From an uncultured Peptococcaceae bacterium (GTDB lineage: Bacteria > Bacillota > Dehalobacteriia > UBA4068 > UBA4997), in contig CALCQI010000025.1 in the NCBI GenBank assembly GCA_937897635.1, positions 53,749 through 117,748 on the forward strand: a stretch of 64,000 nucleotides of DNA, in the 5' to 3' direction. A program made the translations under genes and the position numbers. Below are positions 1,977 through 62,683 of the stretch, in pieces. Within the stretch, counting starts at the first letter, position 1, and each line of letters opens with the position of its first letter. Under the pieces are notes generated by a model. It saw nothing but the letters and a program-made list of their open reading frames with translations, was not told where the DNA came from and made no database searches.

Positions 1977-2606
1977 TTAATTTGCCAACATACCCATTTG
2001 TTTTGAGTTAAGTGCACTTTTATACTGAGAAATCAATTTAGTAATAGCCGAAACCACAGGATGAACTTCCTTACCCTCAATAACCTCAATAGAAGCGGCA
2101 GCGGAAGTAGGAACTACCGTATCCATACCGGAGCTTGCTTTAGCTTCAGCAACCATAGCATTGCCAGTAACTGCTATTTCGGAGCTTATTTCCTTATATA
2201 AAATATGGTCTGCCGTAGGCTGTACCATACCAAGCTCAGTAACAGCATAAGCAGCAATACGCTCGGGAGAGCTCAATTCCTCCACCTGCAGCAGTAGTTT
2301 GGCATTGTCATTTTCTATATCCGCAATAGCCAGCTTGGTAGTATTTATTTCATAACCATACATGGTTATTTTGGCTTCCATGGCAGTATAAGTTAAAGCT
2401 ACCAACAGAATTGCAACTACCGTAAAAGTTATTCTAAATTTTACTCTTTTATTTCTTTCTTTTTTTTGGCAAACGCGTTCCTGATTCAATAGCTCCAGCT
2501 TCGCCTTTGCCTGTTTTTGCACAACATTGCTCGATTCATTTAAAAATTGTCTTGCTGCCAGCACATGAACGCACCACCCTACAATTTTTTTACAGCCTTT
2601 CAGCAA
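1977..2606 (-). CDS. ftsL: Cell division protein FtsL-like (basic cytoplasmic tail, one TM helix, coiled coil); exact start uncertain.
   Basis: Contains '[29 protein letters not shown]' (TM helix) followed by a coiled coil '[15 protein letters not shown]' and '[15 protein letters not shown]'. Located between rsmH and the PBP gene and overlaps the rsmH stop. Confidence 0.65.
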
Positions 2607-3525: not shown

Positions 3526-3542
3526 AATATGACCGCCCTTCT

Positions 3543-3980
3543 TTAAATATCTATATCAAAATCGTTCAGATCCTCGGCAAGGGCTTCATAATCGGCAGCC
3601 GCTTCCTCACTGTAGCCGGACCAATGTGCCGAATCCCAAATTTCCAACCTATTGCCAACACCTATTATTATTACTTCTTTATCCAAGCCGGCAAATTTTC
3701 TAAGATGCGCGGCAACCAAAGCTCTGCCCAGTTTATCTGGTTCAACCACATCAGCTCCCGAAAAAAACAAGCGGCTGAAAGCACGTGCCTTGGCCTTAGT
3801 GAAAGAAAGCTTTTTTAGTTTATCCTCTAAGGCTTGCCATTCATTCATTGGATATACAAAAAGACAATTATCCAGCCCTTGAGTTATAACAAAGCTTTCA
3901 CCCAAGGCATCACGAAACTTGGCAGGAATACTTACCCGCCCTTTGGCATCTATGGAATGTTGGTACTGCCCAATAAACAT
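3543..3980 (-). CDS. mraZ: Transcriptional regulator MraZ. Start re-placed to the internal ATG that gives the canonical '[15 protein letters not shown]' N-terminus.
   Basis: Canonical MraZ N-terminus '[23 protein letters not shown]', with a second half-domain '…[34 protein letters not shown]'. GAGG sits 9 nt upstream of the ATG at 3980. The track start at 4019 would place the operator repeats inside the coding sequence. Confidence 0.9.
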
Positions 3981-4003
3981 AATGCCAAACCTCGTTTCTA
4001 TTT

Positions 4004-4030
4004 TACCACTTTTGCCCACTTCTTACCACT
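4004..4030 (-). promoter_or_regulatory. Putative MraZ operator: three direct GTGG(T/G) repeats at 10-bp spacing in the mraZ 5' UTR.
   Basis: Minus strand reads aaGTGGTaagaaGTGGGcaaaaGTGGTaaaat, i.e. three evenly spaced TGGGN-type repeats like those described for MraZ boxes, positioned between the predicted promoter and the RBS. Confidence 0.45.
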
Positions 4031-4040
4031 TGATATAATA

Positions 4041-4069
4041 AATATACCCTAAATTCTATAATATGGCAA
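4041..4069 (-). promoter_or_regulatory. Putative sigma-A promoter of the mraZ/dcw operon (-35 TTGCCA, 17 nt spacer, -10 TATATT).
   Basis: Hexamers read directly on the minus strand, about 60 nt upstream of the mraZ ATG. Confidence 0.4.
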
Positions 4070-4221
4070 GTATTTTTACTTATAAAAAAACAACCTTTTT
4101 CTGACAATTTATTCAACTTCCAATAAAAAAAACCCCTATATTGGGGGTTAATAAAAATATTTGCTGTTTTCCATACTATATATAGTATGATTTAATATTG
4201 AAAATTTTTTATTATTCTTTA

Positions 4222-4253
4222 CAAAAAAAGAGCAGGGTTTTTAACCCTGCTCT
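4222..4253 (-). terminator. Rho-independent terminator downstream of the M20 amidohydrolase gene.
   Basis: Perfect 9-bp stem agagcaggg / ccctgctct with a 7-nt loop, followed on the minus strand by a run of Ts. Confidence 0.6.
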
Positions 4254-4264
4254 TAAAAATATAC

Positions 4265-5446
4265 TTATTTATCTTCAGACGCTATCGTGTACATGGTTTC
4301 CGCCATGACTTCAACACCTGTTTTCAAGCATTTTTCATCAATATTGAATAACCGATGATGCCATGGATAATTCTCACCTTCACAACCGCAGCCATTTAAA
4401 TAATAAACAGAAGGTGCATATTGGCCGTAATAAGCATAATCCTCGCCTGCCAACAGGGAATATTTCATTTCTGAAAGTTTTAATTCAGGCTTAGCTTGAA
4501 CCACTTTACGCACAACATCGGTTATTTCCACATTATTCATTACAGGCGGATAACCATATAAATAGTTCAGCTGGTACTCCACACCCCAAGCCTGGGTAAC
4601 CCCCCTAAGCACTTCATGCATATGAGCAAGGGCTATATCTCTTGTTTCATTGTTAAGGCAGCGCAAGGTACCTGTCATTTCCACCCTGTCAGGAATAATG
4701 TTCTGGGCAGTACCGCCATGGATAGTACCTATAGTAATAACCAACGGCTCCATAGGATTATTCATACGGCTGGCAATAGTTTGCAATGCCACAACAGCTT
4801 CAGCAGCTACAATAATAGGGTCGCGCGTAACATGAGGTGAAGAACCATGACCGCCCCTGCCTTTTATGGTTAAATGAAAGTCATCCGCCACCGCAAAAAT
4901 AGTACCGTTCTTCAGCGCAATGGTACCGGCCGGATAAAGCGGGGAAACGTGCTGCCCCAATACAACATCTACATCAGGGTTTTTCAAAACCCCTGCTTCA
5001 ACCATATCCCTAGCGCCTCCCGGCGGCTTTTCCTCACGAGGCTGGAAAATAAATTTAAGTGTACCACCGGGCGGATTTTGTATCATCGCCTTAGCTACAC
5101 CCAACGCAATAGTCATATGGGCATCATGGCCACAAGCGTGCATACAACCACGATTGCGGGAACGATACTCAACCTCGTTGCCTTCTTCAATGGGCAGGGC
5201 ATCTATATCCGCACGTAAAGCTACACATTTTTTTTGGGGTTCACCTTCTAAAACAGCAAGCAAGCCATAGCCCGCAATATTGCTTTTTACTTTTAGCCCC
5301 ATAGCCTTCAATTCCTTTGCCAAATAAGCAGAGGTTTCTTTTTCTGCCCCCGAAATTTCAGGATACATGTGCAAATGCCTGCGCCATTTAATTAATGCTT
5401 CCTCGTCAATAGCTTGACTAACCGATGCATTAACCACACCACTCAT
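4265..5446 (-). CDS. M20D-family amidohydrolase (aminoacylase / hippurate-hydrolase type).
   Basis: 'RADIDALP', 'HACGHDAHMTIALGVAK' and 'GRGGHGSSPH' metal-binding motifs. Start set at the ATG (MSGVVNAS…), which has AAAGGTGG 8 nt upstream; the track's first codon is a GTG. Confidence 0.85.
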   Translation of the reverse strand: MSGVVNASVSQAIDEEALIKWRRHLHMYPEISGAEKETSAYLAKELKAMGLKVKSNIAGYGLLAVLEGEPQKKCVALRADIDALPIEEGNEVEYRSRNRGCMHACGHDAHMTIALGVAKAMIQNPPGGTLKFIFQPREEKPPGGARDMVEAGVLKNPDVDVVLGQHVSPLYPAGTIALKNGTIFAVADDFHLTIKGRGGHGSSPHVTRDPIIVAAEAVVALQTIASRMNNPMEPLVITIGTIHGGTAQNIIPDRVEMTGTLRCLNNETRDIALAHMHEVLRGVTQAWGVEYQLNYLYGYPPVMNNVEITDVVRKVVQAKPELKLSEMKYSLLAGEDYAYYGQYAPSVYYLNGCGCEGENYPWHHRLFNIDEKCLKTGVEVMAETMYTIASEDK

Positions 5447-5526
5447 TTTTAATACCACCTTTTATATTATAAATAACAAGCTAATAGCGAACCCAAAACA
5501 GGCTCGCTATAGTTGAATTTTAAAGC

Positions 5527-6309
5527 TTACTCGTTTTTAGCTTCGGATTTTTCCGCGGAAACGTCGTCTTTAGCTTCACTGCCACTATTTGAAGCTTCTT
5601 CATTAGGTTCAGCCACCTTACCATTTGCTTCGATCAATTGTTTCAAGGTTTCAATAGCCGAATCAATACTTTGCAAATATGTACTATCTGCGGGAAGTAA
5701 GGCTTTATAAACCTGCAATTCCTGCTTAGCATCCTGATAACGGCCAACACTTACTAAAAATTGGGTATAGGACATAGCAACTTCATAATTTGTGCTGTCT
5801 GTTTCTTTGGCCAGCAAATATTTTGTTTCCGCCTTTTCATTTTCACCCGCCATAGCATAGCTGTTAGCTGCTTTAACAATAAGCTGTGCTTTACCTGTAT
5901 TATTCAAGCCTTCAGGCGTATTGGCATAAGCCTCTTCAAAAAGCTTAGCTGCTTCCGCATATACGGGTTTAGATTTATCACTGTATTCTGTGCTCTTTGC
6001 GGTATCACCATCCGTAGCGGCTTGAGAAGCCGCATCAATATAAACACCTGCCTGGTTATACAAAAGCTCTGCCAAAGCATTTATGGATGCATAATCATTG
6101 GCTTTTTCCTGATAAGTGATCCTGGCTGTGTCAATAGCAGATTGATAACTTGCAATCTGTGCATTGTAATCTACTTTGCTGGTTACATCAGGAGCAGTTC
6201 TGCCGTTGGTTGCATAAACACCCAAAAGGCCAATAACCAGAACCACAAAAATAACGATCAAAAGCCATCTTCTTTTTTTAACACTTGTACGTAAAGACAG
6301 AATAGACAT
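5527..6309 (-). CDS. Membrane-anchored protein with TPR-like repeats (one N-terminal TM helix; acidic, low-complexity C-terminus).
   Basis: N-terminus 'KKRRWLLIVIFVVLVIGLLGVYA' is a signal-anchor. The rest is helical, Ala/Tyr-rich and repeat-like. No specific family recognised. Confidence 0.5.
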   Translation of the reverse strand: MSILSLRTSVKKRRWLLIVIFVVLVIGLLGVYATNGRTAPDVTSKVDYNAQIASYQSAIDTARITYQEKANDYASINALAELLYNQAGVYIDAASQAATDGDTAKSTEYSDKSKPVYAEAAKLFEEAYANTPEGLNNTGKAQLIVKAANSYAMAGENEKAETKYLLAKETDSTNYEVAMSYTQFLVSVGRYQDAKQELQVYKALLPADSTYLQSIDSAIETLKQLIEANGKVAEPNEEASNSGSEAKDDVSAEKSEAKNE

Positions 6310-6575
6310 TAGCTTTCCTCCATCAACAATAGTTTAGCCTAAAAATACTTTTAAACTCACTTATAGTATTATAATATATATTTTTCAATAAATCCAGTTT
6401 TAAAATAGAAAAGAGCTACAAAGTGCCATTAATAAAAAAGCTGTCATTCTGAACATAAGTGAAATATTTTACAAGATCCTTCGCTACGTTCAAAAAGAGA
6501 TAACAATAGTTAACACAATACAAGGTTTTATTATATAAAGAGTACTTTACCACTATTTTTTATTTTTAGTTATTT

Positions 6576-6998
6576 TTATACTATTGGCCCAAATTTTTCC
6601 AAACAGTTATGGCATCTTCCGTAAAATTCAAGCCTGTGCAAAGTAACCTGCCCCGGTATTTTAGTATTAGCCATTTTCAGTATTTCCTCACAAACAGGCG
6701 CATCAACATCATATACTCTGCCGCAATCCTGGCATACAAAATGATAATGTGGTATGGTATTGCCATCAAAGCGGCTGAAACCCTTACCATAATTAAGCTC
6801 TATAATAGCATTTTCATCAAGCAAAACCTGTAGGTTTCTGTAAACCGTACCCAAACTTATATCCGGCAAGCGTTTGCGAGCTTCAACATAAATGGCCTCC
6901 GCGGTTGGATGGCTTTTGGTACTGCAAAGAATTTCCTTTATGACCCGCCTTTGCTTGGTCATTCTTTTACACTTTAACTTTCCAGTATCCACTGACAT
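6576..6998 (-). CDS. Fur-family metalloregulator (Fur/PerR/Zur type).
   Basis: A winged-helix region 'AEAIYVEARKRLPDISLGTVYRNLQVL', followed by 'HYHFVCQDCGRVYDV…' and 'CHNCL' zinc-site cysteines. AGGAGG 7 nt upstream of the ATG at 6998. Confidence 0.85.
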   Translation of the reverse strand: MSVDTGKLKCKRMTKQRRVIKEILCSTKSHPTAEAIYVEARKRLPDISLGTVYRNLQVLLDENAIIELNYGKGFSRFDGNTIPHYHFVCQDCGRVYDVDAPVCEEILKMANTKIPGQVTLHRLEFYGRCHNCLEKFGPIV

Positions 6999-7020
6999 TT
7001 TAATTCCTCCTGCTTAAAGC

Positions 7021-7455
7021 TTAATTAACCAGTTTATAGGCTTTGCTTTCATTGAACATAGGCAATACTTCCACTGTTTCCCGGTTCAGGCCCAAAATAT
7101 CACCAAAGATCTTTTGCAATTCACCCAAAAGCCTGTTCAAAGAATATTCTGCATTTAAATATTCACTTACAACGGGGTTCAAGGAAAGAGCCATATACAT
7201 TTCCTCCAACAGTTCTTCCCTGTTCAAAATACCTTCGCCCATAAAATCGCTCATTCTTATGTGCAATTCCTGCTTTTTCATTTCATTTAAAACATTTATA
7301 TTATATTCATCCTGTTCCAATTTTGCCTTGGCAGATAAATACTGGTTATATTCCTTGCTTTGCCTTAAAAGATCGGCTAAGCTTTCGGCATTTTGCAGAA
7401 TTTTATGATTAACATCATTACTGTATTTACTATATTTTTTTTCATCTTTAGTCAT
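7021..7455 (-). CDS. YlbF/YmcA-family regulator (UPF0342-like).
   Basis: About 145 aa, all-helical, with the YlbF-like pattern (…SKEYNQYLSAKAKLEQDE…QELHIRMSDFMGEGI…EEL…). Start set at the ATG that has GGAGGTG 7 nt upstream. A possible promoter (TTGCAT, 17 nt, TATAAT) lies at about 7518-7548 on the minus strand. Confidence 0.5.
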   Translation of the reverse strand: MTKDEKKYSKYSNDVNHKILQNAESLADLLRQSKEYNQYLSAKAKLEQDEYNINVLNEMKKQELHIRMSDFMGEGILNREELLEEMYMALSLNPVVSEYLNAEYSLNRLLGELQKIFGDILGLNRETVEVLPMFNESKAYKLVN

Positions 7456-7575
7456 ATTTATCACCTCCAAACTGTAAATCCAAGCAATGTCTTTTTAATA
7501 ATATCTATTACTGATTAAATTATAACCCATCAGCTTGATTTATGCAATATTTATTTGTATACCTGCTTAGTGTCG

Positions 7576-7609
7576 CAAAAAGGGCATCGCAGCTGCGATG
7601 CCCTTTTTA
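7576..7609. terminator. Bidirectional rho-independent terminator downstream of the flx/hdr operon.
   Basis: A 22-nt perfect palindrome gggcatcgcag/ctgcgatgccc flanked by aaaaa on one side and ttttt on the other. Confidence 0.7.
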
Positions 7610-12764: not shown

Positions 12765-13717
12765 GCTGTTTCGCCTCCATTTTTAGTATTTTCCTGTTTT
12801 GCCTTAGCAATAGGCTTAACAGGTTTTTTAGCCGAAACTTCTTCCACAGGTTTGGGAATCAAGGCTTTTTCGGCTACTTCCACAGCGGGGAAGAAGTGTT
12901 TATTTATACCTATCGCTTTGGCACCCGAACCTAAAGCCATAGCCAATAATTCGGTAAAGAAATAAACAGGGATATTCAAGCGAGGATCACGCCTGGACAT
13001 TTCCTTCATGCGCATATCCAAATTGAGCATGCATAAAGGACAAGCCGTTACTATAGCCTCGGCACCATTGCTTACCGCATTTTTAAGTAAACGGTAAATG
13101 ATTTCCCGCCCTACTTTAGGAACAGATACTTGGTGGCTAGCGCCGCAGCATTCGGTTTTGAATGCCCATTCCACAGGGGTAGCACCTACCAATTCCATTA
13201 ACTTATCCATGCTTTGAGGGTTTTCAGTATCATCGAACTGCACAACACCTGCAGGACGTACCAAAAGACAGCCGTAATAGCTGGCAACTTTCAGGCCGTT
13301 CAAGGGTTTGGCAATGTTAGCTTTGATAGCTTCCATTGCTTCAGGACGGCTCATTACGTCCAAAAGGCAGTAAACATCGTTTTTAGCCTTGTAGGGAATT
13401 TCCAAAATATCTTCTATATGTTTTTGGTTTTTTTCCGATTCCCTTACATATTTAACAGCTGTTTTCATTCTGCCGAAGCAAGCAGCACAAGGTACTGCAA
13501 CATCCAAATCCATATCTTCGGCCAAAGCCAAATTACGGGCAGGCAAAGCTATTGAAAGATCATGATTAGTAAGGTGAGCGGCAGAAGCACCGCAGCAGTT
13601 CCAATCAGGAGTTTCAATCAGCTCCATACCTATTTTTTTCGCCACAAATCGGCTGGAAAGCTCAAATTCCACACCGCTTCCTGCCGAAGAACAACCGGGA
13701 TAATATGCATATTTCAT
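12761..13717 (-). CDS. hdrB: Heterodisulfide reductase subunit B (two CCG domains).
   Basis: 'YYPGCS', 'CCGAS…' and a second 'CCGASHQ' cysteine-rich CCG motif, 318 aa. Stop/start overlaps with hdrA and hdrC. Confidence 0.8.
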   Translation of the reverse strand: MKYAYYPGCSSAGSGVEFELSSRFVAKKIGMELIETPDWNCCGASAAHLTNHDLSIALPARNLALAEDMDLDVAVPCAACFGRMKTAVKYVRESEKNQKHIEDILEIPYKAKNDVYCLLDVMSRPEAMEAIKANIAKPLNGLKVASYYGCLLVRPAGVVQFDDTENPQSMDKLMELVGATPVEWAFKTECCGASHQVSVPKVGREIIYRLLKNAVSNGAEAIVTACPLCMLNLDMRMKEMSRRDPRLNIPVYFFTELLAMALGSGAKAIGINKHFFPAVEVAEKALIPKPVEEVSAKKPVKPIAKAKQENTKNGGETA

Positions 13718-14283
13718 TATTTATTACCCCCTTCCAGGCATTTGGCCATAATTTTTCTTACGCTTGCTTTATCCTTAACCATATGCGGACGGATACGAAT
13801 CTTACGGTTGAAATATAAATGTGGGGCAGACCAAACATCCTGCATAAGGTGGCCTGTGGTAAAATTATACAAGCCCATCAAAACCATTTCATGAGATTTG
13901 CCGAAATAACGGATATTGTTCAGGAACAAATCATTAAAACGATTCAATTCCTTAATGGGTGTAATACCCTTCTTTTTAGCTTCCTGCCGAACAGCTTCCA
14001 TTAAAGAAGGCAAATCGACTTGATGCGGACAACGGGTAACACAGGTTTGACAAGTGGCACACAACCACGGAGTGCGGGCTTTAAGTACTTCATCCCACAT
14101 TCCAAGCTGCATGTAGCGAATGACTTCACGCGGTTGCAAGTCCATAGCCAAAGCTACAGGACAACCGGCTGAGCATTTGCCACATTGATAGCAGTCAGCA
14201 AGGTTTACGCCGGACTTAGCCTGCATATCCCCAATAACTGATTTGTTCTTGGCTGATGCTTTGGTTAAATCAACTACTACCAT
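13717..14283 (-). CDS. hdrC: Heterodisulfide reductase subunit C (4Fe-4S dicluster). Start re-placed to 'MVVVDL'.
   Basis: 'CYQCGKCSAGCP' and 'CATCQTCVTRCP' motifs. GAGGAG sits 5 nt upstream of the ATG at 14283. The 5' end carries a GGGG…CCCC hairpin. Confidence 0.75.
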   Translation of the reverse strand: MVVVDLTKASAKNKSVIGDMQAKSGVNLADCYQCGKCSAGCPVALAMDLQPREVIRYMQLGMWDEVLKARTPWLCATCQTCVTRCPHQVDLPSLMEAVRQEAKKKGITPIKELNRFNDLFLNNIRYFGKSHEMVLMGLYNFTTGHLMQDVWSAPHLYFNRKIRIRPHMVKDKASVRKIMAKCLEGGNK

Positions 14284-51326: not shown

Positions 51327-52490
51327 TTATTTTTTTATGCCTGCTTTGCCCGCACTGTTCAAGGCCAGCAGGTTAGTATCGTAGGAAAAAGTAAGGTTCT
51401 CCTTGGCTCTTTGTCTGTTCAAAGCAAGGCGGATCAAGTCTGTCAAAAGCACATCATATTCCTTACCGCTGGCCTGCCACAAATAAAAAGCCAAAGACCC
51501 CGGTATCGTATTTATCTCGTTCACATATACACTGTTATCCGCTTTATCCAGTAGAAAATCTATTCTGCTTACACCATGGCCATCCAAGGCTATAAAGGTT
51601 TCCACCGCCAGCTTTTGAATAAGCTTGGTTGTTTCTTCGGGTATTTCCGCCGGTATTTGCCTGCGGCTGCCGCTCATGCCCTTACCACCCTGCATATATT
51701 TATCCTGATATGTCAAAAACTCATTGGCCGTAATCGGTTCTTCACATACAGAAGCCTCGGCCTTGCCGTTACCGCCCAATACGGAGCAATTTATCTCCCT
51801 TAATTCCGTAACACATTTTTCCACCAACAAACGCTGTGAAAAAGTGGCGGCATTATCCAAAGCTTCCTCTAGCTGGGTTCGGTTTGCGGCTTTGTTTATA
51901 CCAACACTGGAACCCAAATTAGCGGGCTTCACTATTACAGGATAGCTCAGATTGGCCTCTATATCCGCCAGAACTTCCTCCCTGGCCTCCTGCCATTTAT
52001 AAGAGGTAAACCAAGTATGCGGCACAATGGGTATACCCACATCCTTCAATACCGATTTCATCATTATTTTATCCATACCCACCGCCGCAGCCAAAACCCC
52101 GGGACCGGCATAAGGTACATTCAGTAATTCCAAAAGCCCCTGCAAACAGCCGTCTTCACCATGAGCACCATGCATTACGGGTAAAGCAACATCAAACTGG
52201 AATTGTTTGACACGAAACAAAGAAGCTATAGATAAGGCACCATGTTCACCGGCACTGGCGGAAACACGCACCAAAGTGGTTTCTGCTTTGAGTTTGTTCA
52301 AATCCTTATAGTTTTCGATATCCAGCAGTTTTTCACCCGTATACCAAAGGCCTTCCTTGGAAATATAAAAAGGCACTACTTCATACTTATTGCTATTCAG
52401 CGCGGCCATAGCCTGAACCGCTGAAATAACGGCTACCTCATGCTCTACCGAGCGGCCGCCGAAAATTACACCTACCCTTATTTTCTGCAC
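51327..52490 (-). CDS. ddl: D-alanine--D-alanine ligase (long form, 387 aa).
   Basis: 'VGVIFGGRSVEHEVA', 'MHGAHGEDG', 'PVIVKPANLGSSVGI' and 'VNEINTIPG' motifs, plus a roughly 40 aa C-terminal extension. Confidence 0.9.
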   Translation of the reverse strand: MQKIRVGVIFGGRSVEHEVAVISAVQAMAALNSNKYEVVPFYISKEGLWYTGEKLLDIENYKDLNKLKAETTLVRVSASAGEHGALSIASLFRVKQFQFDVALPVMHGAHGEDGCLQGLLELLNVPYAGPGVLAAAVGMDKIMMKSVLKDVGIPIVPHTWFTSYKWQEAREEVLADIEANLSYPVIVKPANLGSSVGINKAANRTQLEEALDNAATFSQRLLVEKCVTELREINCSVLGGNGKAEASVCEEPITANEFLTYQDKYMQGGKGMSGSRRQIPAEIPEETTKLIQKLAVETFIALDGHGVSRIDFLLDKADNSVYVNEINTIPGSLAFYLWQASGKEYDVLLTDLIRLALNRQRAKENLTFSYDTNLLALNSAGKAGIKK

Positions 52491-52519: not shown

Positions 52520-54127
52520 TTATTTTTCATTGAATGTATCAGGCAAATCATTTTCAAAAAGCACATAATCACCGCTTTTTACAATAGAACGCATAAAACG
52601 GTTGGCATCCTGCAAGTCTTCCGCCACATAATAACGCGCGGGCGGCATGGCCGCTTCTGCTAAACCATCCTGCAAAGGCTTGCTGTGATTTTTGCCCACC
52701 AGGATAACATAATCACAGGCTTTGGCACAAGCCATGGCAAACTTTTTATTTTCCTCATATTCGGCCTTACCTAATTCCACCATACCTGGGGTGATGATGA
52801 TCTTTTGCCCACCCTGCATAGCATTAAGCACGTCTAAAGCTGTTTGCGCACCAGCAGGGTTGGAATTGAAAGCATCGTCTATAATTGTAACACCGCCTGC
52901 GGAAGGCTTCAACACCAATCTATGCGGAATAGGCGGCACAGTTGCCACTGCCCTGGCAATAACGGGTAGGCTCATGCCCAATTCCCTTGCCACTGCCACC
53001 GCCGCCAATATATTGTAAATATTGTGTTTGCCTAAAAGCGCTGTTTTCATGTTTTGCCTTTCACCCTTGGCACTCACTACTGTAAAATGCATACCATGAG
53101 CATCAAAGCTTATATTTTCCGCCCAATAATCCGTATCCCTAATGTTTAAACCGTAGCTTAAAACGGGCGCGGGCGAAGTATGAGCAAACCCCCGAATAAC
53201 GGGATCATCAAAATTCAAAACCGCCCTGCCGTCTGAGGGAAGGGCACGAATCAGCTCAAATTTGGTTTCGGCTATATTTTCCAAGCTGCCAAAGCTTTCC
53301 AAATGGCAGGGGCCTATAGCCGTAAGGATACCAAATTTAGGCTGTACCAAGCGGCAAAGCTCGTCTATATCCCCTTTTTGCCTGGCACCCATTTCCGCCA
53401 CAAAAACATCATGGATCGGCTTTAGGGAATTGCGTACGGTAATGGTTATGCCCATGGGCGTATTGTAGCTATCAGGTGTTACCAAGGTATTCAGTTCCGC
53501 TGAAAGCACTTTGCCCAAAATGAATTTGGTACTGGTTTTGCCGTAACTGCCTGTAATACCTATGCTTGTTAAAAAAGGCATTTCCTGAATGATTTTTTTA
53601 GCATCATTTATATACCTGTTATTGATGGCTTTTTCCACAGGTGCAGCCAAGACCGTACCCGCCATCATAAACACAGGCGAAATAAAAGCCAATACCAGCA
53701 AAATATCGATGACCAAAACAGGAGCTGCCAAATTGCCCCAAATTATCAAGGCATCCGCAAGCAAAGCGGCAAGCAGCACAAAAAACAGGGAAAATGCATA
53801 GAGCCTTTTAGCGCGCGCAGTAAATACAAGCGACTTCTTTTCCGTGGGACGATGCCAAGTTATTAGCATAAGTGCATAAAAAGCCGCAAGCAAAATAGGC
53901 AAAGCCATGCTTTCTTTGCCTTTTACCACCAGGATAACAGCAAATACCTCTAAAATTACGGGCAATACATCCCTCCAAAGCAAGTACTGGCTCAAACGTG
54001 GCTTTAACCAGCGCCAAAAGCGGTCATTGCGGTAGGAATTTTGCTGCATCATATGCAAATGCTGAACCATACGCCTGCTTAAATAAATAAACCATAACAG
54101 GAAGGTTATTTGCCATGCAATCAACAT
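52520..54127 (-). CDS. MurF-like Mur ligase (central and C-terminal domains) fused to an N-terminal domain of five TM helices in place of the canonical MurF N-domain.
   Basis: Residues 1-165 form 5 hydrophobic helices. The rest is MurF-like: P-loop 'GITGSYGKTSTK' at about residue 190, 'HNIYNILAA', and 'DDAFNSNPAGAQTALDVL' (the MurF DDSYNANP motif). AAGGAG lies upstream of the 54127 ATG, so the extension is part of the ORF. Confidence 0.7.
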   Translation of the reverse strand: MLIAWQITFLLWFIYLSRRMVQHLHMMQQNSYRNDRFWRWLKPRLSQYLLWRDVLPVILEVFAVILVVKGKESMALPILLAAFYALMLITWHRPTEKKSLVFTARAKRLYAFSLFFVLLAALLADALIIWGNLAAPVLVIDILLVLAFISPVFMMAGTVLAAPVEKAINNRYINDAKKIIQEMPFLTSIGITGSYGKTSTKFILGKVLSAELNTLVTPDSYNTPMGITITVRNSLKPIHDVFVAEMGARQKGDIDELCRLVQPKFGILTAIGPCHLESFGSLENIAETKFELIRALPSDGRAVLNFDDPVIRGFAHTSPAPVLSYGLNIRDTDYWAENISFDAHGMHFTVVSAKGERQNMKTALLGKHNIYNILAAVAVARELGMSLPVIARAVATVPPIPHRLVLKPSAGGVTIIDDAFNSNPAGAQTALDVLNAMQGGQKIIITPGMVELGKAEYEENKKFAMACAKACDYVILVGKNHSKPLQDGLAEAAMPPARYYVAEDLQDANRFMRSIVKSGDYVLFENDLPDTFNEK

Positions 54128-54258
54128 TATTGTATTTTCTCCTTATTAACTATTAATTTAATCATAAATATTGTAATATTTACCTAATATATTGTATTAA
54201 AGTTTTCCAACACTACAAAAGTATTGAAATTGCTTTATTGTTTTAGCAATATTTCAGC

Positions 54259-55029
54259 TCAAGGCCTATAGCTTTGCTGTTTGGCCAAAAAACTGTTTAA
54301 AACCGCCAAAAACTGCGGCAGCCTTTCCAAATAGGCAAAATGCCCTGCGCCCTCTATAGCCACCAAACCTGCGTCGGCAATTTCAGCTTCCATGATTTTG
54401 GCATCACTAAACGGGGTTGCGGTATCCTCCTTACCCCAAAACAAAAGTGTGGGGGCTTTTATTTGCTTCAGCAATCCACGCAAGTTTTCATTAACTACAT
54501 TAACAAAAATTTGCCGCATCATGCCACTTGCGTTTTGATAGTCGGAAGAACCAGCTTTACTGCGCCATTTATGCAAGATTTCTTCTTTTTTCTTTTTACC
54601 TAATATAGACAAGCCAAATTTAGCAGCTTTGTAGCTGTAAACCTTGGCATAATAATCAATGCCTCTGTGGGGTTTTAAACCGGCGCAGCCTGTTAAAACC
54701 ATTTTTAAAGGAATACCTTTGCTGCCCAAATGCAAAGCAAGGCGCCCGCCAAAGGAATGAGCTATTATAACGGGCGGCTTTTCACAATGCTCTTTTATAA
54801 AGGCTTCAAGCATAGCAGCATAATGAGCCGTATCCCAAAGCTCTTGTGGCGACTCACTTTCACCGAAACCCGGCAAATCAAAATTAAAAACCCGCATAGA
54901 CTGCGCCAAATGGCATGCCACAGCGGCAAAGCTGGCTCTGGAGCCGCCCCAACCATGCAATAAGAGCACAGGGTAACCATTCCCCATTTCATCATATTTA
55001 ATTGTAATACCTTCATACAGGAAATTCAT
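54259..55029 (-). CDS. Alpha/beta-fold hydrolase.
   Basis: 'LLLHGWGGS' and the 'AHSFGG' nucleophile elbow. Confidence 0.75.
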   Translation of the reverse strand: MNFLYEGITIKYDEMGNGYPVLLLHGWGGSRASFAAVACHLAQSMRVFNFDLPGFGESESPQELWDTAHYAAMLEAFIKEHCEKPPVIIAHSFGGRLALHLGSKGIPLKMVLTGCAGLKPHRGIDYYAKVYSYKAAKFGLSILGKKKKEEILHKWRSKAGSSDYQNASGMMRQIFVNVVNENLRGLLKQIKAPTLLFWGKEDTATPFSDAKIMEAEIADAGLVAIEGAGHFAYLERLPQFLAVLNSFLAKQQSYRP

Positions 55030-55157
55030 TATTACCCCCAAAACTTAAAATAAAGTTATTTAGTTTATATTATATCACAAATAAAATTTTCCTTTTAATA
55101 TTTTTGTTTTAATCTTTTTTTTATTTTATTTAGCTTTTTAATTATAATATCTAGGCC

Positions 55158-55184
55158 AAAAAAATATGCCCAAATGGGCATATA
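55158..55184 (-). terminator. Rho-independent terminator downstream of comM.
   Basis: atatgccc-aaat-gggcatat stem, followed by a T-run on the minus strand. Confidence 0.6.
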
Positions 55185-56733: not shown

Positions 56734-57624
56734 AGCATCCTCTCCACGAAACAAAATAAATACAGCATAAGATTAAGTAAAATGCTATATAATATAGTAA
56801 CTTTTCTGCAAAAGCAGAATATTACCTGCCCCAAACTCCAAATAAATTTTCCGACACTTTAACAAAACCGCAAAACAAGCATTTTTATACAAAAATACTA
56901 CATAATATTACATATTTTCCATTTATTTTTAAAAAATAAAATTAAAAAAAGGCAAAAAATTTTTTACTTCAGATTCAGACAATTTCCCAAAAAACAGGTT
57001 GATTTACATCAATTTTCCGACAAATCAATCATTTTATCAACATTAGACAATATCTTAACATGACGTTCCGTTGAGTGGAAAGAGTTTTTTGAAAATTCTC
57101 ACATGGCAATTTAAGTGGCATTTTGCTTTCTTAATATGAAAGTTTTAAATATAAGCATCTTTATGCCCTGCTATGGTATACTGTATACAGGAATAATGAA
57201 CTCATAAAAAGGCTTGCTATTTTGGCAATAATGTATTAGAATTGTTAAAGAGATTTAACGGGTTTTCCCTGTCCCTTATCCATTTTTTCCCTCATATAAA
57301 AAATGAATAATATTTACTTAATATTGCCTACGGAAAGCTGTGTATTCTTTTTCTTGCAGATATGCTTTAAATAGCAAAAAATGGCGATAAAACACAGCTC
57401 TAACATAAAATTATATGCTGTTTCATATTCCTTCCTATTAGAAATTTCCTATTAGAAACAGGTATAAGCATCTTTGGTAGTTAATTATAACAAAGGGGTT
57501 TATTATTTGTTTGCCCCTAGGCTTTTGGAAATTTCAGAAAAAACAAATAACCTTCTCTTGTCTTTGTTTTGCTTTGGTTAGAGGATCAAGGCAAAATAAA
57601 ATATATTTTAGGAGGCGCGAAGAA

Positions 57625-59463
57625 ATGAATGGTGGTTTTATGGGAAAATTTCTGTGGGTTAATTTGACCACAGGCGCAATCGAGGTGGAAAAGCCTGATA
57701 TAAGCCTTTATAAGGATTATTTGGGTGGCTACGGTATTGGAGATAAGATACTTTACGAAAAATTAAAGCCTGGTATCGATCCTTTGGGTCCTGAAAATAT
57801 TTTAGCTTATTTACCGGGGTTGCTTACCGGTACAGGTGCACTGGTTGCTTCCCGTTTTATGGTTGTAAGCAAATCGCCTTTAACAGGTGGTATCGGTGAT
57901 GCCAACTGCGGTGGACACATTGGCGCGGAAATGAAAAAAGCAGGCTTTGACGGTATTTATTTTACCGGCCAATCCGAAAAACCGGTTTACCTTTATATTA
58001 CAGATGACCATGCAGAACTGCGTGACGCTACATCTTACTGGGGTATGACAACTTACGAAACCGAGGAAGCCTTAAGAGAGGTAACCGACCCCAAAGCAAG
58101 GGTTTCCGCTATTGGACCGGCAGGTGAAAGAATGAGCCTGCTTGCTGCTATTGTAACTGAAAAAGGCAATGTTGCCGCTCGTTCCGGCCTTGGTGCCGTT
58201 ATGGGCTCAAAAAAGCTTAAAGCTGTAGTAGTTAAAGGTTCACAAAAAGTTAAAATTGCTGATGAAGAAGCTTTCAAAGCTGCCCGCGCAAAATATACCC
58301 CGGAATTCAAAGAAGGCATGGGGAAATTATTGCGAGATTTCGGTACTGCGGCTTTCTATGAAGGCTCTGTAGAATCTGCTGATGCTCCTATAAAAAACTG
58401 GGGCGGTGTTCCCAGCGATTATCCCAATGCTGCCAAATGCGGCGCCGAAGCTCTTAAAGAAATAACTGTTAAGAAAACTCCCTGTACAGGTTGCCCCGCT
58501 GGTTGCGCACGCCTGATACAACCCAAATATACCGATGAACAAATAAAAACTATTCAATATGAATCTCAGGGCGCTTTTGGTTCAATGTGCCTGGTAGATG
58601 ATTTGGAATCCATGGTAAAAGCCAACGATTACTGTAACCGTTACGGCACCGATACAATCTCTGTAGGTGCAGCCTGTGCTTTTGCCATAGAATGTTTTGA
58701 AAATGGTTTGTTGACACTGGAACAAACCGACGGCTTGGAATTAAAATGGGGCAACGGCCCTGCTATGGCTGAGCTTGCACGCCGTATCTGCATGAGAGAA
58801 ACCTGGCTGGGTGAGCTTTTGGCAGACGGCACCTTAAAGGCTACAGAACAGATTCCCGGCTCTTTCGAATATGCCATGCAAATTGGCGGCCAGGAACTGC
58901 CCATGCACGACCAACGCTTAACTTATGGCCTTTATACTATGTATTTGGCAGAACCCACGCCGGGCAAACATACTCAAGGTACTGAGGACTATGCTCCTCC
59001 GCAAATCCCCATGCCTGAATATGATCCCGCAGGCCAGGCTGATCGTGGTGCGTCTCACAAAATGATAGAAGACTTTGCCCACGTTGTTGATGCTTTAGGT
59101 TTTTGCCTTTTTACTAATATATTCATACTTCCTTACACAAGTGCGGAAGATTTCCTAAACGCTGTTACCGGCGAAAAATATACCTTTGAAGATTTACTTA
59201 AAATAGGCGACCGTATTTCCATGCTGCGTCATGCTTTTAATACCCGTGAAGGCATTAAATTCACTGACCGCAAGGTTCCTAAACGTTTACTGAAGGCTCC
59301 CGAAAAAGAAGGTCCCCTGCAAGGCGTTGTGTTAGACCATGATCAGCTGATTGGGGATTATTTGAAGGATTCCGGTTTGGATCCTGTTACCCTTAAACCC
59401 AAAAAAGAACGTCTTTTGGCTTTGGGTCTTGATAATGTGGCATCAGAACTTTACCCGGAATAA
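57625..59463 (+). CDS. aor: Tungsten-type aldehyde:ferredoxin oxidoreductase (AOR family).
   Basis: 'GKFLWVNLTTGAIEVEKPD' AOR N-terminus and a 'CTGCPAGC' [4Fe-4S] motif. AGGAGG is 9 nt upstream of the ATG at 57625. The track start at 57511 is an in-frame artefact. Confidence 0.85.
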   Translation: MNGGFMGKFLWVNLTTGAIEVEKPDISLYKDYLGGYGIGDKILYEKLKPGIDPLGPENILAYLPGLLTGTGALVASRFMVVSKSPLTGGIGDANCGGHIGAEMKKAGFDGIYFTGQSEKPVYLYITDDHAELRDATSYWGMTTYETEEALREVTDPKARVSAIGPAGERMSLLAAIVTEKGNVAARSGLGAVMGSKKLKAVVVKGSQKVKIADEEAFKAARAKYTPEFKEGMGKLLRDFGTAAFYEGSVESADAPIKNWGGVPSDYPNAAKCGAEALKEITVKKTPCTGCPAGCARLIQPKYTDEQIKTIQYESQGAFGSMCLVDDLESMVKANDYCNRYGTDTISVGAACAFAIECFENGLLTLEQTDGLELKWGNGPAMAELARRICMRETWLGELLADGTLKATEQIPGSFEYAMQIGGQELPMHDQRLTYGLYTMYLAEPTPGKHTQGTEDYAPPQIPMPEYDPAGQADRGASHKMIEDFAHVVDALGFCLFTNIFILPYTSAEDFLNAVTGEKYTFEDLLKIGDRISMLRHAFNTREGIKFTDRKVPKRLLKAPEKEGPLQGVVLDHDQLIGDYLKDSGLDPVTLKPKKERLLALGLDNVASELYPE

Positions 59464-59573
59464 GCATTAATTTTGCTACAATAATTTCCCTTAAAAAATA
59501 TTGTTTTATTTGCTATTCAATATTCTACAGGGAAAATTTATTGCATATACAATTATATTTGGAGGCGATATTT

Positions 59574-60995
59574 ATGTCCAAAATCGATTGGAAACAAGTA
59601 GAACAATGGAACAATGAGTATGTCATTAAGTGCTTCTTAAAACAGAGCGAGTATGGTACCATGTTCATTGAAAGCACCGAAGGTGATTACCTTATCGATG
59701 CTGATGGTAAGCGTTGGTTAGACTTCTACAACCAACTTTACTGCGTAAACGCAGGCCAGAAAGTTCCTGAAGTACAGCAGGCTATTAAAGATGCTACTGA
59801 CCGTTATGGTTTTGTATGGGATATTTACACAACCGACTACAAAGCCGAAGCAGCTAAAATGATCGTCAAAGACATCCTTGGTGATAAGGGCTGGGCTTCC
59901 CAGGTTCGTTTCACTTTAGGTGGCGGCGATTCCGTAGAAGTAGCTTCCCTGATCGCACGTTTGTACACAAACAAAAACCTGATTGCTACTCGTGAACACG
60001 CTTATCACGGTGTTTCCTCAGGTGCTGTTTCCTTTACCACTATCCCCGCAAGCCGCAATAACGCAGTTACCGAAGAATATGGAAAAAGCTTAGAAGTTCC
60101 TGGTGCAGACTTCCAAGGCTCTTTCATGTGCCCTGCTCCTTTCTGCTATCGTTGCTCTTTGGGCCATACATATCCTGAATGTAAATGTGTACATGCAGAT
60201 GGTACTTTGCCCTGCGTAAAACAAACTGAAGCCGTTATTCGCAGCCACAACGTTAACCGCGTTGCTGCTATCATCACCGAGCCTGCTTTTGGTGCTGGTA
60301 CTATTATGCCTCCTAAAGAATACTTACCACAAATCCAGGATATGAAAAACCGCTTAGGTATACTTTGGATTATGGACGAAGTATTGATGGGTTGGGGTCG
60401 TTTAGGCGAATGGTTTGGCCACCAGTTATATGGCGATATCAAACCCGATATCATGACTACTGCAAAAGGTATTTCCAGCTCCAGCTTACCTTTGGGTGCT
60501 GTAATAGTAAATGAAAAAGTTGCTAAATTCTTGGCAGAAATCCGTTGGAACCACGTTTCCACCTTCTCTGGCCACCCAATCCCTGTAGCAGCTGCTGTTG
60601 CTAACATGAAATATCTGATCAAAAATGATGCTCCCGGTCATTGCAAAAAAGCCGGTGAATATTTCGGTCAGGAATTATTGGCATTAGAAGAAAAACACAG
60701 TTCTATCGGTTTAGTAGCAGGTGCCGGTATGTTCTGGCAGGTTGAATTGGTTAAAAACCGTGAAACTAAGGAACCCTTCATTGCTGATGACCGTTATCTC
60801 ACTTTTGCGGGCGACCAATCTAAATATCCTGTTCATATCATTGCTGATAAATGCGCTGAAAAAGGCGTTCTGCTTGGTGGTTTCGTACCTAATACTTTGC
60901 GTATTGGTGCTTCCTGCATGGTAGAAAAAGCTGATATGGATAAAGCTATTAACGCTATGGATTATGCGTTGACCTATTTGGAAACTCAATTCTAG
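59574..60995 (+). CDS. Class-III (omega) PLP-dependent aminotransferase.
   Basis: 'DEVLMGWGRLG' and the Schiff-base lysine 'IMTTAKG'. GGAGG RBS upstream of 59574. Confidence 0.85.
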   Translation: MSKIDWKQVEQWNNEYVIKCFLKQSEYGTMFIESTEGDYLIDADGKRWLDFYNQLYCVNAGQKVPEVQQAIKDATDRYGFVWDIYTTDYKAEAAKMIVKDILGDKGWASQVRFTLGGGDSVEVASLIARLYTNKNLIATREHAYHGVSSGAVSFTTIPASRNNAVTEEYGKSLEVPGADFQGSFMCPAPFCYRCSLGHTYPECKCVHADGTLPCVKQTEAVIRSHNVNRVAAIITEPAFGAGTIMPPKEYLPQIQDMKNRLGILWIMDEVLMGWGRLGEWFGHQLYGDIKPDIMTTAKGISSSSLPLGAVIVNEKVAKFLAEIRWNHVSTFSGHPIPVAAAVANMKYLIKNDAPGHCKKAGEYFGQELLALEEKHSSIGLVAGAGMFWQVELVKNRETKEPFIADDRYLTFAGDQSKYPVHIIADKCAEKGVLLGGFVPNTLRIGASCMVEKADMDKAINAMDYALTYLETQF

Positions 60996-61015
60996 TATTG
61001 AACTAAAAAAGGGGT

Positions 61016-61037
61016 GAGCCACCCTTAAGGGTGGCTC
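61016..61037 (+). terminator. Hairpin downstream of the aminotransferase gene; a weak terminator with no clean T-run.
   Basis: gagccaccc-ttaa-gggtggctc stem. Confidence 0.4.
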
Positions 61038-61285
61038 GGCTTCCTTTATATATCTGCTAGGCCGCATCCTATACAGATATATAAATATAGTTTTACAATG
61101 CTTAATAAGAAATCACAATCTTGCTAAAATTAGAAATAATAATACAATATTGTTCTTTCTCATTAGGCACTGTTATATAAATTACTATAGTTAAAAAGCC
61201 GCGTTTGTTTTTATCTACTGCTATTTTATTATTATCCATTTATTCAAAGTTGTTGTGAAAGTTGTTATTAAAATGGAGGTGCTTT

Positions 61286-62683
61286 ATGACAGGTTTAAAA
61301 AGAGAGATTGGTTTAATTCCTGCTATAGCAACTGCAGTAGGTATTGTTGTATCCTCTTCTGCATTGCTTATGTTAGGTCAAGGCTTTGGTTTAGGTGGCC
61401 CCGCATTTATAGTTGCTATGCTTATTGCAGCAACAGTTAACTTATGCGTAGCTTTTTCTTTTGCTGAGTTAACTTCCCTAATCCCTGCGGCAGGTGGTAT
61501 CAACCACTATACACTGCCGGCAATGGGTCGTACTGTTGGTATTTTTGCAGTTTTGGCAGGTTACTTCTTGGTATCCATTTTATCCAATGCTGCTGAATCC
61601 ACAATTGCAGGTAACGTATTGCATGACTTTTTCTTCCCCAGCATCAGCCCTACGCTTTGGGCATTTATTTTAATGACTATCCTTACATTAATCAACTTCC
61701 GCGGTGTTAAATCCTATGCTTATTCCCAAGTATTTTTAGCAGGTTCCATGATCATTTCCATGGTAATACTTTCTTGCATAGGTATATTCGGCTTAGGTTC
61801 TGGTACTCCTTTGGAAACCAAGCTTACTTTCGATATGGCTGCTGGTGGTGGCATACTAAGTATGCTGGGTATCGCTTTTTGGTTATTTGTTGGTTTGGAA
61901 TTCGTTTGCCCGCTGGCAGAAGAAATCATCAACCCACAAAGATTTATCCCCATTGCTATGATTTCCGCATTAGTTATCATCTTTATCAGCGATACTTTAT
62001 TCGGCTTTATGGCCATGAAATACTTAGGTGTTGAAGGCTTAGCCGCTTCCGGCACTCCTCACGTTGATGCTGCAAGTGCCGTTCTGGGCAGAGCCGGTCA
62101 GATTTGGATTGGTATCATCAGTATCATAGCTACAGGCTCCACATTAAATACCTTCATTGCAGCTATTCCCCGTATGCTTTACGGGATGGCTAAAGAAGGC
62201 CAGTTCCCAAGGGTATTTGCTAAAATTAACAGATGGGGCGCTCCTTGGGTTGGCGTATTACTAACATATTTGATCACCATCGTTCTCTTGGTATTCAACG
62301 ATCCTAACTCTGTTTCAATGATTTCCACCTTCGTTCTTTCCGGTTGCATCGGCTGGATGGTTTGCTATGTAATTGCTCATATTGACGTTCTCATCTTAAG
62401 GAAAAAATATCCTGATGCAAAACGTTCTTTCAAAGTTCCTTTTGGTCCTCTTCTTCCTATTTTGAGTTCCTTTGGTTTGATTTACATGATGATCTTTATT
62501 TATCCGGATGCTGACGGCAAAATCATTAATGAAGTTTCCAGCATCATCTTCAAATTTGCAGGTACTGCTTTAGGAATCTGTGCACTTTGGAGTATATTCT
62601 GGGTTAAAGTTGTCATGAAAAAACCCTTGTTTGAAACCGTTCCCATGGAAAAATTAGTAAAAGAATTGGAAGAAACAGCTTAG
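61286..62683 (+). CDS. APC-superfamily amino acid/amine permease.
   Basis: 12 predicted TM helices with an APC-like layout. GGAGGTG is 4 nt upstream of the ATG. Confidence 0.8.
   Translation: MTGLKREIGLIPAIATAVGIVVSSSALLMLGQGFGLGGPAFIVAMLIAATVNLCVAFSFAELTSLIPAAGGINHYTLPAMGRTVGIFAVLAGYFLVSILSNAAESTIAGNVLHDFFFPSISPTLWAFILMTILTLINFRGVKSYAYSQVFLAGSMIISMVILSCIGIFGLGSGTPLETKLTFDMAAGGGILSMLGIAFWLFVGLEFVCPLAEEIINPQRFIPIAMISALVIIFISDTLFGFMAMKYLGVEGLAASGTPHVDAASAVLGRAGQIWIGIISIIATGSTLNTFIAAIPRMLYGMAKEGQFPRVFAKINRWGAPWVGVLLTYLITIVLLVFNDPNSVSMISTFVLSGCIGWMVCYVIAHIDVLILRKKYPDAKRSFKVPFGPLLPILSSFGLIYMMIFIYPDADGKIINEVSSIIFKFAGTALGICALWSIFWVKVVMKKPLFETVPMEKLVKELEETA

Follow-up and report, generated by a model that had tools for sequence, protein, structure and literature searches.

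A MurF-type ligase with a five-helix membrane domain in place of the MurF N-terminal domain, encoded in a conserved cassette with an alpha/beta hydrolase and a D-alanine–D-alanine ligase

Introduction

In the textbook view of peptidoglycan synthesis, the four Mur ligase steps are soluble, cytoplasmic reactions that take place before the first membrane step, which is carried out by MraY. The last of these ligases, MurF, adds D-alanyl-D-alanine (D-Ala-D-Ala) to N-acetylmuramic acid (MurNAc)-tripeptide linked to uridine diphosphate (UDP), the UDP end of which is gripped by the soluble N-terminal domain of the enzyme (domain 1). Here we describe a gene that encodes a MurF-like ligase with five membrane helices in place of this domain, found in a 64,000-nucleotide stretch of DNA from an uncultured Peptococcaceae bacterium (GenBank assembly GCA_937897635.1, contig CALCQI010000025.1, positions 53,749 to 117,748 of the forward strand). 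We refer to the protein as membrane MurF and to the whole stretch as the window, in whose coordinates its features are given. The gene is the second of a three-gene cassette, following a gene for an alpha/beta hydrolase and preceding ddl, which encodes Ddl, a D-alanine–D-alanine ligase.

Canonical MurF (EC 6.3.2.10; NCBIfam TIGR01143; structures 1GG4, 4CVK, 4QF5, 3ZL8) is the closest described system. Membrane MurF has the central and C-terminal domains in common with it, including all shared motifs, and it has the genomic association of a murF gene, being linked to ddl and, in Poribacteria, lying with its cassette between murE and mraY. The differences are a 186-residue five-helix domain with invariant motifs of its own where MurF has its soluble N-domain, a score below the cut-off of the family model, a C-terminal ENDLPDT motif and a near-constant partner, the alpha/beta hydrolase. 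A related gene arrangement is the Bacillus-type ddl-murF operon: in B. subtilis, ddl and murF lie together outside the division and cell wall (dcw) cluster, which runs directly from murE to mraY. Our locus shares with it both the position of murF beside ddl outside dcw and the murE-mraY junction within dcw, but here the ligase gene precedes ddl, the hydrolase gene comes first and the MurF is membrane-integral.

MurT/GatD, the lipid II isoglutaminyl synthase, contains a Mur ligase homologue without the N-terminal domain that acts on lipid II. It is like membrane MurF in lacking the canonical N-domain, in having a partner enzyme and in its setting at the membrane, where its substrate is lipid-linked; at the sequence level, there is a weak match to the central domain. 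MurT is soluble or peripheral, with a DUF1727 C-terminal domain and a glutaminase as partner, whereas membrane MurF is membrane-integral, has a MurF-like C-terminal domain and is accompanied by Ddl and a Ser-Asp-His hydrolase. CapB/PgsB is an established membrane-anchored member of the Mur ligase superfamily, with a single anchor helix and with PgsC/PgsA as its working partners. Neither the family nor such partners were found here: PgsB/CapB is absent from the 25 NCBIfam matches of membrane MurF at E<=0.01, and no PgsC/PgsA-like genes are conserved near the cassette loci. Phylogenetically, CapB/PgsB groups nearer to FPGS than to MurC-F (PMC11915815).

Natural Mur chimeras (MurE-MurF, MurD-FtsW, MraY-MurG, MurC-Ddl) have been read as evidence for a membrane Mur complex in a survey that covered only proteins of more than 600 amino acids and lists no fusion of a membrane domain to MurF (PMC10214165). 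Such chimeras join two known enzymes and keep the N-domain of the ligase or a cap substitute, whereas in membrane MurF the N-domain is replaced by a domain that has no other architecture among the 150 best matches of its profile. The cassette is also distinct from van-type resistance clusters, since its Ddl is of the D-Ala-D-Ala type and neither VanH nor VanRS is conserved near its loci. In the full-text literature that we searched, the coverage of which was incomplete so that prior work may exist, we found no description of membrane MurF, of its domain or of the cassette; the lipocone paper does not mention a MurF fusion.

Architecture and family assignment

The gene for membrane MurF (52520..54127, minus strand) is one uninterrupted open frame that runs from 54127 to 52520 and encodes 535 amino acids. 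An AAGGAG ribosome-binding site, visible by direct reading of the sequence (54139..54144, minus strand), lies 11 nucleotides 5' of the ATG at 54127. A preliminary description of the window, made from its letters alone, had pointed to this site and to the lack of an in-frame stop, and had proposed a MurF-like ligase with a five-helix membrane domain replacing the N-domain. The results from Pfam, NCBIfam, AlphaFold2 and Foldseek agree with this proposal in every detail, as does the comparison with homologues.

The N-terminal membrane domain (residues 1-186; 53570..54127, minus strand) is supported by AlphaFold2, Foldseek, Pfam, profile searches and topology. It is followed by the central, ATP-binding Mur ligase domain (residues 191-380; 52988..53557, minus strand), which is matched by Mur_ligase_M (PF08245, E 1.3e-44) and aligns to the MurF structures 4cvk and 1gg4, and by the C-terminal Mur ligase domain (residues 402-524; 52556..52924, minus strand), which is matched by Mur_ligase_C (PF02875, E 4.3e-14) and holds the DDAFNSNP motif; the motif DDAFNSNPAGAQ occupies residues 417-428. 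Together, the two domain matches place the protein in the Mur ligase superfamily. The P-loop GITGSYGKTSTK (residues 190-201; 53560..53525, minus strand) aligns to Pseudomonas aeruginosa MurF from residue 106 onward and is thus displaced towards the C-terminus to the extent previously noted. Residues 1-190 had no match in Pfam and hence none to the N-domain family PF01225, so that the protein shows the pattern expected beforehand, namely Mur_ligase_M and Mur_ligase_C without the N-domain. Correspondingly, alignments of membrane MurF to PDB sequences begin only at query residues ~181-190.

With an alignment of 80 sequences, AlphaFold2 predicted the whole protein at a local distance difference test score (pLDDT) of 94.9 and a predicted TM-score (pTM) of 0.88. 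The model has helices at residues 2-29, 34-48, 51-68, 75-90, 104-130 and 135-181, after which a standard Mur ligase body follows. Modelled alone, the N-terminal part was also predicted as a folded membrane domain, with a pLDDT of 95. Relatives have the same N-terminal extension: the 120 closest database homologues range in length from 515 to 563 amino acids, and all contain the same two Pfam domains. Five independent contigs encode an identical protein.

The ligase body is closest to MurF. Against the NCBIfam murF model TIGR01143 the protein scored 238.1 bits, below the cut-off of 288.6, with profile positions 75-403 of 418 matched; the other single-ligase models scored lower (murC 92, murD 74, murE 73 bits). 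The best sequence matches in the PDB were the MurF proteins of P. aeruginosa and Escherichia coli, and in Foldseek searches of the PDB the top nine matches were all MurF, with ~365 aligned columns confined to the ligase body. The P-loop and the motifs EMGA, HLE, TKFEL, LNxDD, DDAFNSNP and TPGMVELG show little or no variation in 80 homologues. Databases label proteins of this kind as MurF or 'Mur ligase family protein'. The MurT models, which have a cut-off of 800 bits, gave only 34 and 21.5, and no GatD-like gene is conserved around the cassette loci. By these comparisons of sequence and fold, membrane MurF is closer to MurF than to MurC, MurD, MurE, Mpl or MurT.

At its very end, the protein carries an acidic motif, ENDLPDT(Y/F)NE (residues 525-535; 52523..52555), in which E525 to D530 are invariant in 80 sequences. 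AlphaFold2 confidence falls to a pLDDT of ~57-82 at this motif, which might act as a tail that docks onto a partner or onto the basic loops.

The membrane domain

Hydropathy and family-wide charge counts indicate five membrane helices with the N-terminus outside; the domain further comprises an amphipathic helix (residues 34-48) and a stalk helix connecting it to the ligase. The loops formed by residues 19-50 and 91-105 carry net charges of +5.4 and +4.1, respectively, throughout the family, which assigns them to the cytoplasm and thus to the side of the ligase. The N-terminus and two short loops are placed outside by the same counts.

Conservation is concentrated in the two cytoplasmic loops, as seen in alignments of 17 and 80 sequences. 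The first contains the motif LHMMQQNSYRNDRFWRWLK (residues 25-43; 53999..54055, minus strand; consensus LHMxQQNSYRNxRFxRWLK), in which all 80 sequences share Q28, Y32, R36 and W40 and at least 90% keep H25 and M26; for N30, invariance is limited to the alignment of 17 sequences. The motif of cytoplasmic loop 3, EKKSLVFTARAKRLY (residues 96-110; 53798..53842, minus strand; consensus EKKxLVxTxRAKRLY), has K97, T103, R105 and R108 as invariant residues and K98, L100 and L109 kept in at least 90%. P163 and E165 of the membrane domain are invariant in both alignments as well.

In a search of 1.84 billion representative proteins with a profile built from the domain, 2,151 protein clusters matched at E<=0.001. 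Among the 150 best matches the domain is almost always N-terminal, starting at residue 1-22, in proteins of ~515-560 amino acids or in shorter ones, which are presumably fragments, and no other architecture occurs in this set. The structural comparison with Foldseek revealed no fold relative in the PDB at E<=0.001, the best TM-score being 0.36, and no likeness to solved polyprenyl-phosphate-binding proteins. As judged from its conservation as a domain and from the invariant residues in its cytoplasmic loops, the membrane part does more than anchor the protein.

Of 28 N-domains, 7 gave weak Pfam matches to FA_desaturase, with a best E of 0.003. We consider them compositional and rejected a kinship, because only one histidine (H25) is conserved and the histidine boxes are absent.

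The cassette and its distribution

To place membrane MurF in its genomic context, we relied on 80 loci fetched from GTDB species genomes among the matches listed (at least 600) and on a few further loci obtained through protein look-ups; the following counts and carriers refer to these matches and loci. Of the loci that could be assessed, 73 of 79 have the hydrolase gene immediately upstream of membrane MurF, and 71 of 80 have ddl immediately downstream; the next most frequent neighbour family was seen in only 12 of 81 loci. In the window, both genes are on the minus strand like that of the ligase, with the hydrolase at 55041..54259 and the 387-residue Ddl at 52490..51327, where they had been reported as neighbours. 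That they are conserved cassette partners and not casual neighbours had escaped the preliminary description.

On the Bacillota side, the carriers belong to Clostridia, Tissierellia and Bacilli, including several genera of Bacillaceae, and on the Bacteroidota side to Muribaculaceae, Barnesiella and other Bacteroidales. Further carriers are Poribacteria, Synergistaceae, Haloplasma and metagenome-assembled genomes (MAGs) labelled 'Tenericutes'. Mucilaginibacter xinganensis and a gammaproteobacterial tubeworm symbiont likewise possess all three cassette genes. Complete genomes with the cassette include OZ245030.1 and CBDANF010000003.1 (Poribacteria), OY781471.1 (Tissierellales), CP094656.1 and NZ_CP174509.1 (Bacillaceae), CP022743.1 (Mucilaginibacter) and CP053680.1 (the gammaproteobacterial symbiont), and Pseudalkalibacillus and Peptoniphilus stercorisuis are, like M. 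xinganensis, carriers in culture. The ligase occurs alone in the Gammaproteobacteria Thiomargarita and Endothiovibrio and in a Chitinophagales MAG (L002, L007, L020), and in some Muribaculaceae and related MAGs (L030, L033, L040, L043) no ddl adjoins the hydrolase-ligase pair. The spread over phyla is patchy, and homologues from different phyla are 39-50% identical. In Clostridia, the synteny comM-cassette-dprA-topA is stable; the cassettes of Bacillaceae, Mucilaginibacter and the gammaproteobacterial symbiont lie in unrelated neighbourhoods. A tblastn search with the N-domain had no match among the plasmids of PLSDB.

This distribution bears on a sporulation-specific role in cortex synthesis, which had been suggested for the enzyme. 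We reject this role because the cassette is found in Bacteroidota, Poribacteria, Gammaproteobacteria and Synergistaceae, none of which is known to form endospores.

Partner enzymes

The first gene of the cassette encodes a cytoplasmic alpha/beta-fold hydrolase of 260 amino acids (54259..55041, minus strand; Pfam Abhydrolase_1/6), for which other assemblies use the ATG at 55029, giving 256 amino acids. Its triad Ser96 (in HSFGG), Asp206 and His234 is conserved in at least 97% of 71 cassette hydrolases. The same degree of conservation applies to a GSxDY...R motif at residues ~164-176 (54514..54552), which may be a substrate-binding signature peculiar to this hydrolase clade. Homologues across phyla are 46-62% identical and are named only 'alpha/beta hydrolase', and the relatives in the PDB are assorted esterases. 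From its intact triad and its gene linkage, the hydrolase appears to be an active enzyme and a near-obligatory partner of membrane MurF.

The third gene encodes a DdlA-type D-alanine–D-alanine ligase of 387 amino acids (51327..52490, minus strand), with GGAGGG 5' of its GTG start. It scored 354 bits against NCBIfam NF002528 (cut-off 262), whereas the VanG, VanA and VanC models stayed far below their cut-offs, and it aligns end to end with the DdlA structures 3i12 and 7u56. Its 'DKY' aligns to the omega-loop 'TKY' of these two structures, and this Lys-Tyr pair, conserved in 70 sequences, points to the D-Ala-D-Ala type rather than to a D-lactate or D-serine type. The protein had been described as a long-form Ddl; its length is indeed 387 amino acids, but it is an ordinary DdlA-type enzyme whose extra length is mainly a non-conserved C-terminal tail.

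Two lineage-specific genes accompany the cassette. In four Bacillaceae, a gene for a VanX-like Peptidase_M15 follows the cassette ddl (L001, 13048..13761; L006, L008 and L010, ~12900..13820), and in M. xinganensis a class IV aminotransferase gene (Aminotran_4; L085, 13645..14472) comes directly after it. The Aminotran_4 family of Pfam includes D-amino-acid transaminases, and we suspect that the Mucilaginibacter enzyme serves the supply of D-amino acids. We also considered vancomycin-type reprogramming as a general explanation of the cassette and rejected it, given a Ddl of the D-Ala-D-Ala type and a VanX-like gene that is confined to the four Bacillaceae.

The cassette and the dcw cluster

Poribacteria have the cassette inside the dcw cluster, at the murF slot, in 4 of 4 loci. 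In one of these (L022) the order is rsmH-ftsI-murE-[hydrolase-ligase-ddl]-mraY-murD-ftsW-murG-murC, with every flanking gene above its NCBIfam cut-off, and BLAST gave the same order for the other three, in one case (L031) only up to mraY. Tandems of murE and murF are the norm in dcw clusters (PMC11915815). The position of the Poribacteria cassette directly before mraY lends strength to the earlier suggestion of an altered substrate handling, with a lipid-linked precursor, or of a coupling to MraY.

The window itself contains the start of the host dcw cluster (1..3980, minus strand), in which BLAST with dcw proteins identified mraZ (3980..3543), rsmH (3525..2590), ftsL (2564..1977) and, from 1852 and running off the window edge, spoVD/ftsI, all on the minus strand. 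Two contigs with an identical RsmH and 99.9% identity to window positions 1..7606 (L090, L092) extend past this edge, where the cluster continues as spoVD-murE-mraY-murD-ftsW-murG-murC (L090, 7607..15017). MurE, of the meso-diaminopimelate type, MraY and MurD of this cluster are above their NCBIfam cut-offs. On these two contigs, murF was found neither between murE and mraY nor elsewhere in the cluster, and the 64-kb window has no Mur ligase besides membrane MurF. The membrane form is thus the only murF-type gene seen in ~71 kb of host genome and the only one linked to ddl, from the same contig as the dcw cluster and ~50 kb away from it. The host dcw cluster lacks murF, which the preliminary description had overlooked.

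Proposed function

We propose that membrane MurF is a membrane-integral MurF-type ligase that adds D-Ala-D-Ala to a MurNAc-tripeptide precursor and is probably the working MurF of its host, a reading to which, as a whole, we give about an even chance. Its parts differ in strength. That the enzyme adds D-Ala-D-Ala to a peptidoglycan precursor is very likely, and that it is the main MurF of the host organism is fairly likely; for the acceptor, the odds between a UDP-linked and a lipid-linked molecule are roughly balanced, with a slight lean to UDP. The assignment of the MurF job follows from the MurF-like body, the D-Ala-D-Ala-making partner, the murF slot in Poribacteria and the host dcw cluster without murF. 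The architecture, the topology, the conservation and the genomic linkage are observed, and we infer catalytic activity, the identity of the acceptor, the housekeeping status and the role of the cassette hydrolase.

In the mechanism that we envisage, the co-transcribed DdlA-type ligase would make D-Ala-D-Ala, which the central and C-terminal domains of membrane MurF would join to the meso-diaminopimelate carboxylate of the tripeptide by the usual ATP-dependent acyl-phosphate ligation. The five-helix domain would stand in for soluble domain 1, its invariant basic and polar loops (residues 25-43 and 96-110) possibly keeping the precursor by its carrier end at the surface of the membrane, near MraY. 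We lean towards UDP-MurNAc-tripeptide as the acceptor still in use, with the product let go beside MraY, because the specificity of MraY then need not change where the cassette replaces murF and because the invariant Gln, Asn, Tyr, Trp and Thr residues suit the recognition of a nucleotide or sugar. The hydrolase might, as a guess, edit or trim precursor termini, for which YfiH, reportedly a peptidoglycan-editing factor, offers a conceptual precedent.

Several observations weigh against the proposed function. At 238 bits, membrane MurF stays under the curated MurF threshold of 288.6 bits, and it is missing the UDP-binding domain present in every solved MurF. The textbook account of the MurF step leaves no room for the tightly linked hydrolase, and the VanX-like D-Ala-D-Ala dipeptidase of the four Bacillaceae is an odd neighbour for an operon that makes D-Ala-D-Ala. 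The carriers in Bacillaceae and Mucilaginibacter and the gammaproteobacterial endosymbiont presumably keep a canonical MurF, which would point to a non-redundant or accessory role of the cassette in these lineages. The Bacillus ddl-murF arrangement shows that murF can lie outside dcw. Finally, a simple tether needs one helix and not a conserved polytopic domain, which favours a changed acceptor.

Alternative explanations

A changed acceptor is the core of the alternative that survives best, which we consider possible though less than likely. Under it, the enzyme would work at the membrane's inner face and add D-Ala-D-Ala to undecaprenyl-pyrophosphate-MurNAc-tripeptide, i.e. at the level of lipid I or II. 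The polyprenyl tail would be bound by the five-helix domain and the pyrophosphate by the basic loops, and the hydrolase might trim damaged or tetrapeptide termini for rebuilding. The replacement of the UDP-binding domain by a conserved polytopic domain, not by a single anchor helix, is consistent with this, as are the invariant K97, R105, R108 and R36 and the near-invariant K98 at the cytoplasmic membrane surface and the exclusive fusion of the domain to this ligase among the 150 best profile matches. The activity of MurT/GatD, whose structures are weak sequence matches to the ligase, provides a precedent; the Poribacteria cassette lies directly 5' of mraY, and co-occurrence with a canonical MurF, where this is expected, would fit a distinct activity at the membrane. 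However, where the cassette replaces murF, i.e. in Poribacteria and probably in the host, MraY would have to take UDP-MurNAc-tripeptide as its main substrate, a reaction that is possible and known as a poor one. Further, Q28, N30 (in the 17-sequence alignment only), Y32, W40 and T103 would suit the recognition of uridine or sugar equally well, and the domain is unlike any solved polyprenyl-phosphate-binding protein.

The cassette could also be an accessory, horizontally spread paralogous module that forms a second D-Ala-D-Ala branch, with canonical murF elsewhere in the host genome. It might then back up or bypass Ddl and MurF, for example under antibiotic or D-cycloserine-like stress or in the course of peptide recycling. 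We regard this as rather unlikely for the host. The patchy spread at 39-50% identity between phyla, the unrelated neighbourhoods in Bacillaceae, Mucilaginibacter and the gammaproteobacterial symbiont, and the lineage-specific addition of the VanX-like dipeptidase and the class IV aminotransferase are consistent with such a module. They stand against the location of the Poribacteria cassette within dcw at the murF slot, the lack of murF in the host dcw cluster, the fixed position between comM and dprA-topA in Clostridia and the absence of an N-domain match in PLSDB.

It is improbable that the cassette is not concerned with peptidoglycan at all, so that its MurF-like and ATP-grasp ligases would build or decorate some other membrane-associated product in the manner of CapB/PgsB. 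The score below the MurF cut-off, the loss of the substrate-binding N-domain, a hydrolase without explanation and the presence of the cassette in Haloplasma and 'Tenericutes'-labelled MAGs could be understood in this way. Yet MurF is far ahead of all other family matches, PgsB/CapB being absent among those at E<=0.01; the partner passes a curated Ddl model and keeps the residues of the D-Ala-D-Ala type; the cassette fills the murF slot of the Poribacteria dcw cluster; and no gene family apart from the cassette genes exceeds 12 of 81 loci in the neighbourhood, where PgsC/PgsA-like genes are not conserved either.

An annotation artefact, be it an internal true start or a small membrane reading frame joined to murF by a frameshift, as the preliminary description had allowed for, is practically excluded by the same unbroken layout of ~515-560 amino acids in the best 120 homologues and across phyla, the 2,151 clusters matched by the domain profile, the invariant residues within the first 110 amino acids, the identical protein on five independent contigs and the AAGGAG before the ATG.

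Implications

The membrane MurF family suggests that the last Mur ligase is built into the membrane in many bacteria, among them gut Clostridia and Bacteroidales, sponge-associated Poribacteria and sulfur-oxidising Gammaproteobacteria. The enzyme comes with its own supply of D-Ala-D-Ala and with an uncharacterised hydrolase, and its membrane domain is without a known relative. If it is the housekeeping MurF, it would directly support the long-debated membrane channelling of precursor synthesis, would offer an antibiotic target that is lineage-selective and has another substrate-binding end, and would mean that annotation as MurF by name conceals two architectures.

A lipid-linked acceptor would amount to a new reaction in peptidoglycan biosynthesis. 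In its full form, in which the stem peptide is completed at the lipid level by a novel polyprenyl-pyrophosphate-binding domain while the hydrolase trims termini, this scenario is tentative; if true, a membrane route of synthesis or repair would replace the last 'cytoplasmic' Mur step in some phyla.

Transcription signals and surrounding genes

A consensus scan located a promoter-like site, TTAAAA-18-TATAAT with a TG before the -10 element, just upstream of the hydrolase gene (55069..55098, minus strand). It is the best-scoring promoter-like site in the region and is a consensus match only. A terminator-like hairpin (55183..55164) lies upstream of it, after comM. No hairpin with a T run was found between the three cassette genes, and two weak matches lie inside the coding sequences of the hydrolase and ddl. 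In the window, the hydrolase and ligase genes are separated by an AT-rich spacer of 131 nucleotides (54128..54258), whereas in Alkalihalobacillus, a Bacillota MAG, Mucilaginibacter and the gammaproteobacterial symbiont they overlap or lie 1-3 nucleotides apart. Searches with Rfam yielded no family at gathering score anywhere in the 64-kb window.

Beside comM, a divergent block on the plus strand (57511..62683) encodes an aldehyde:ferredoxin oxidoreductase (AFOR_N/AFOR_C), a class III aminotransferase and an amino-acid permease. In a further copy of the locus, from a UBA MAG (L087), the oxidoreductase and comM appear as fragmentary gene calls, and the copy aligns to the window in three pieces.

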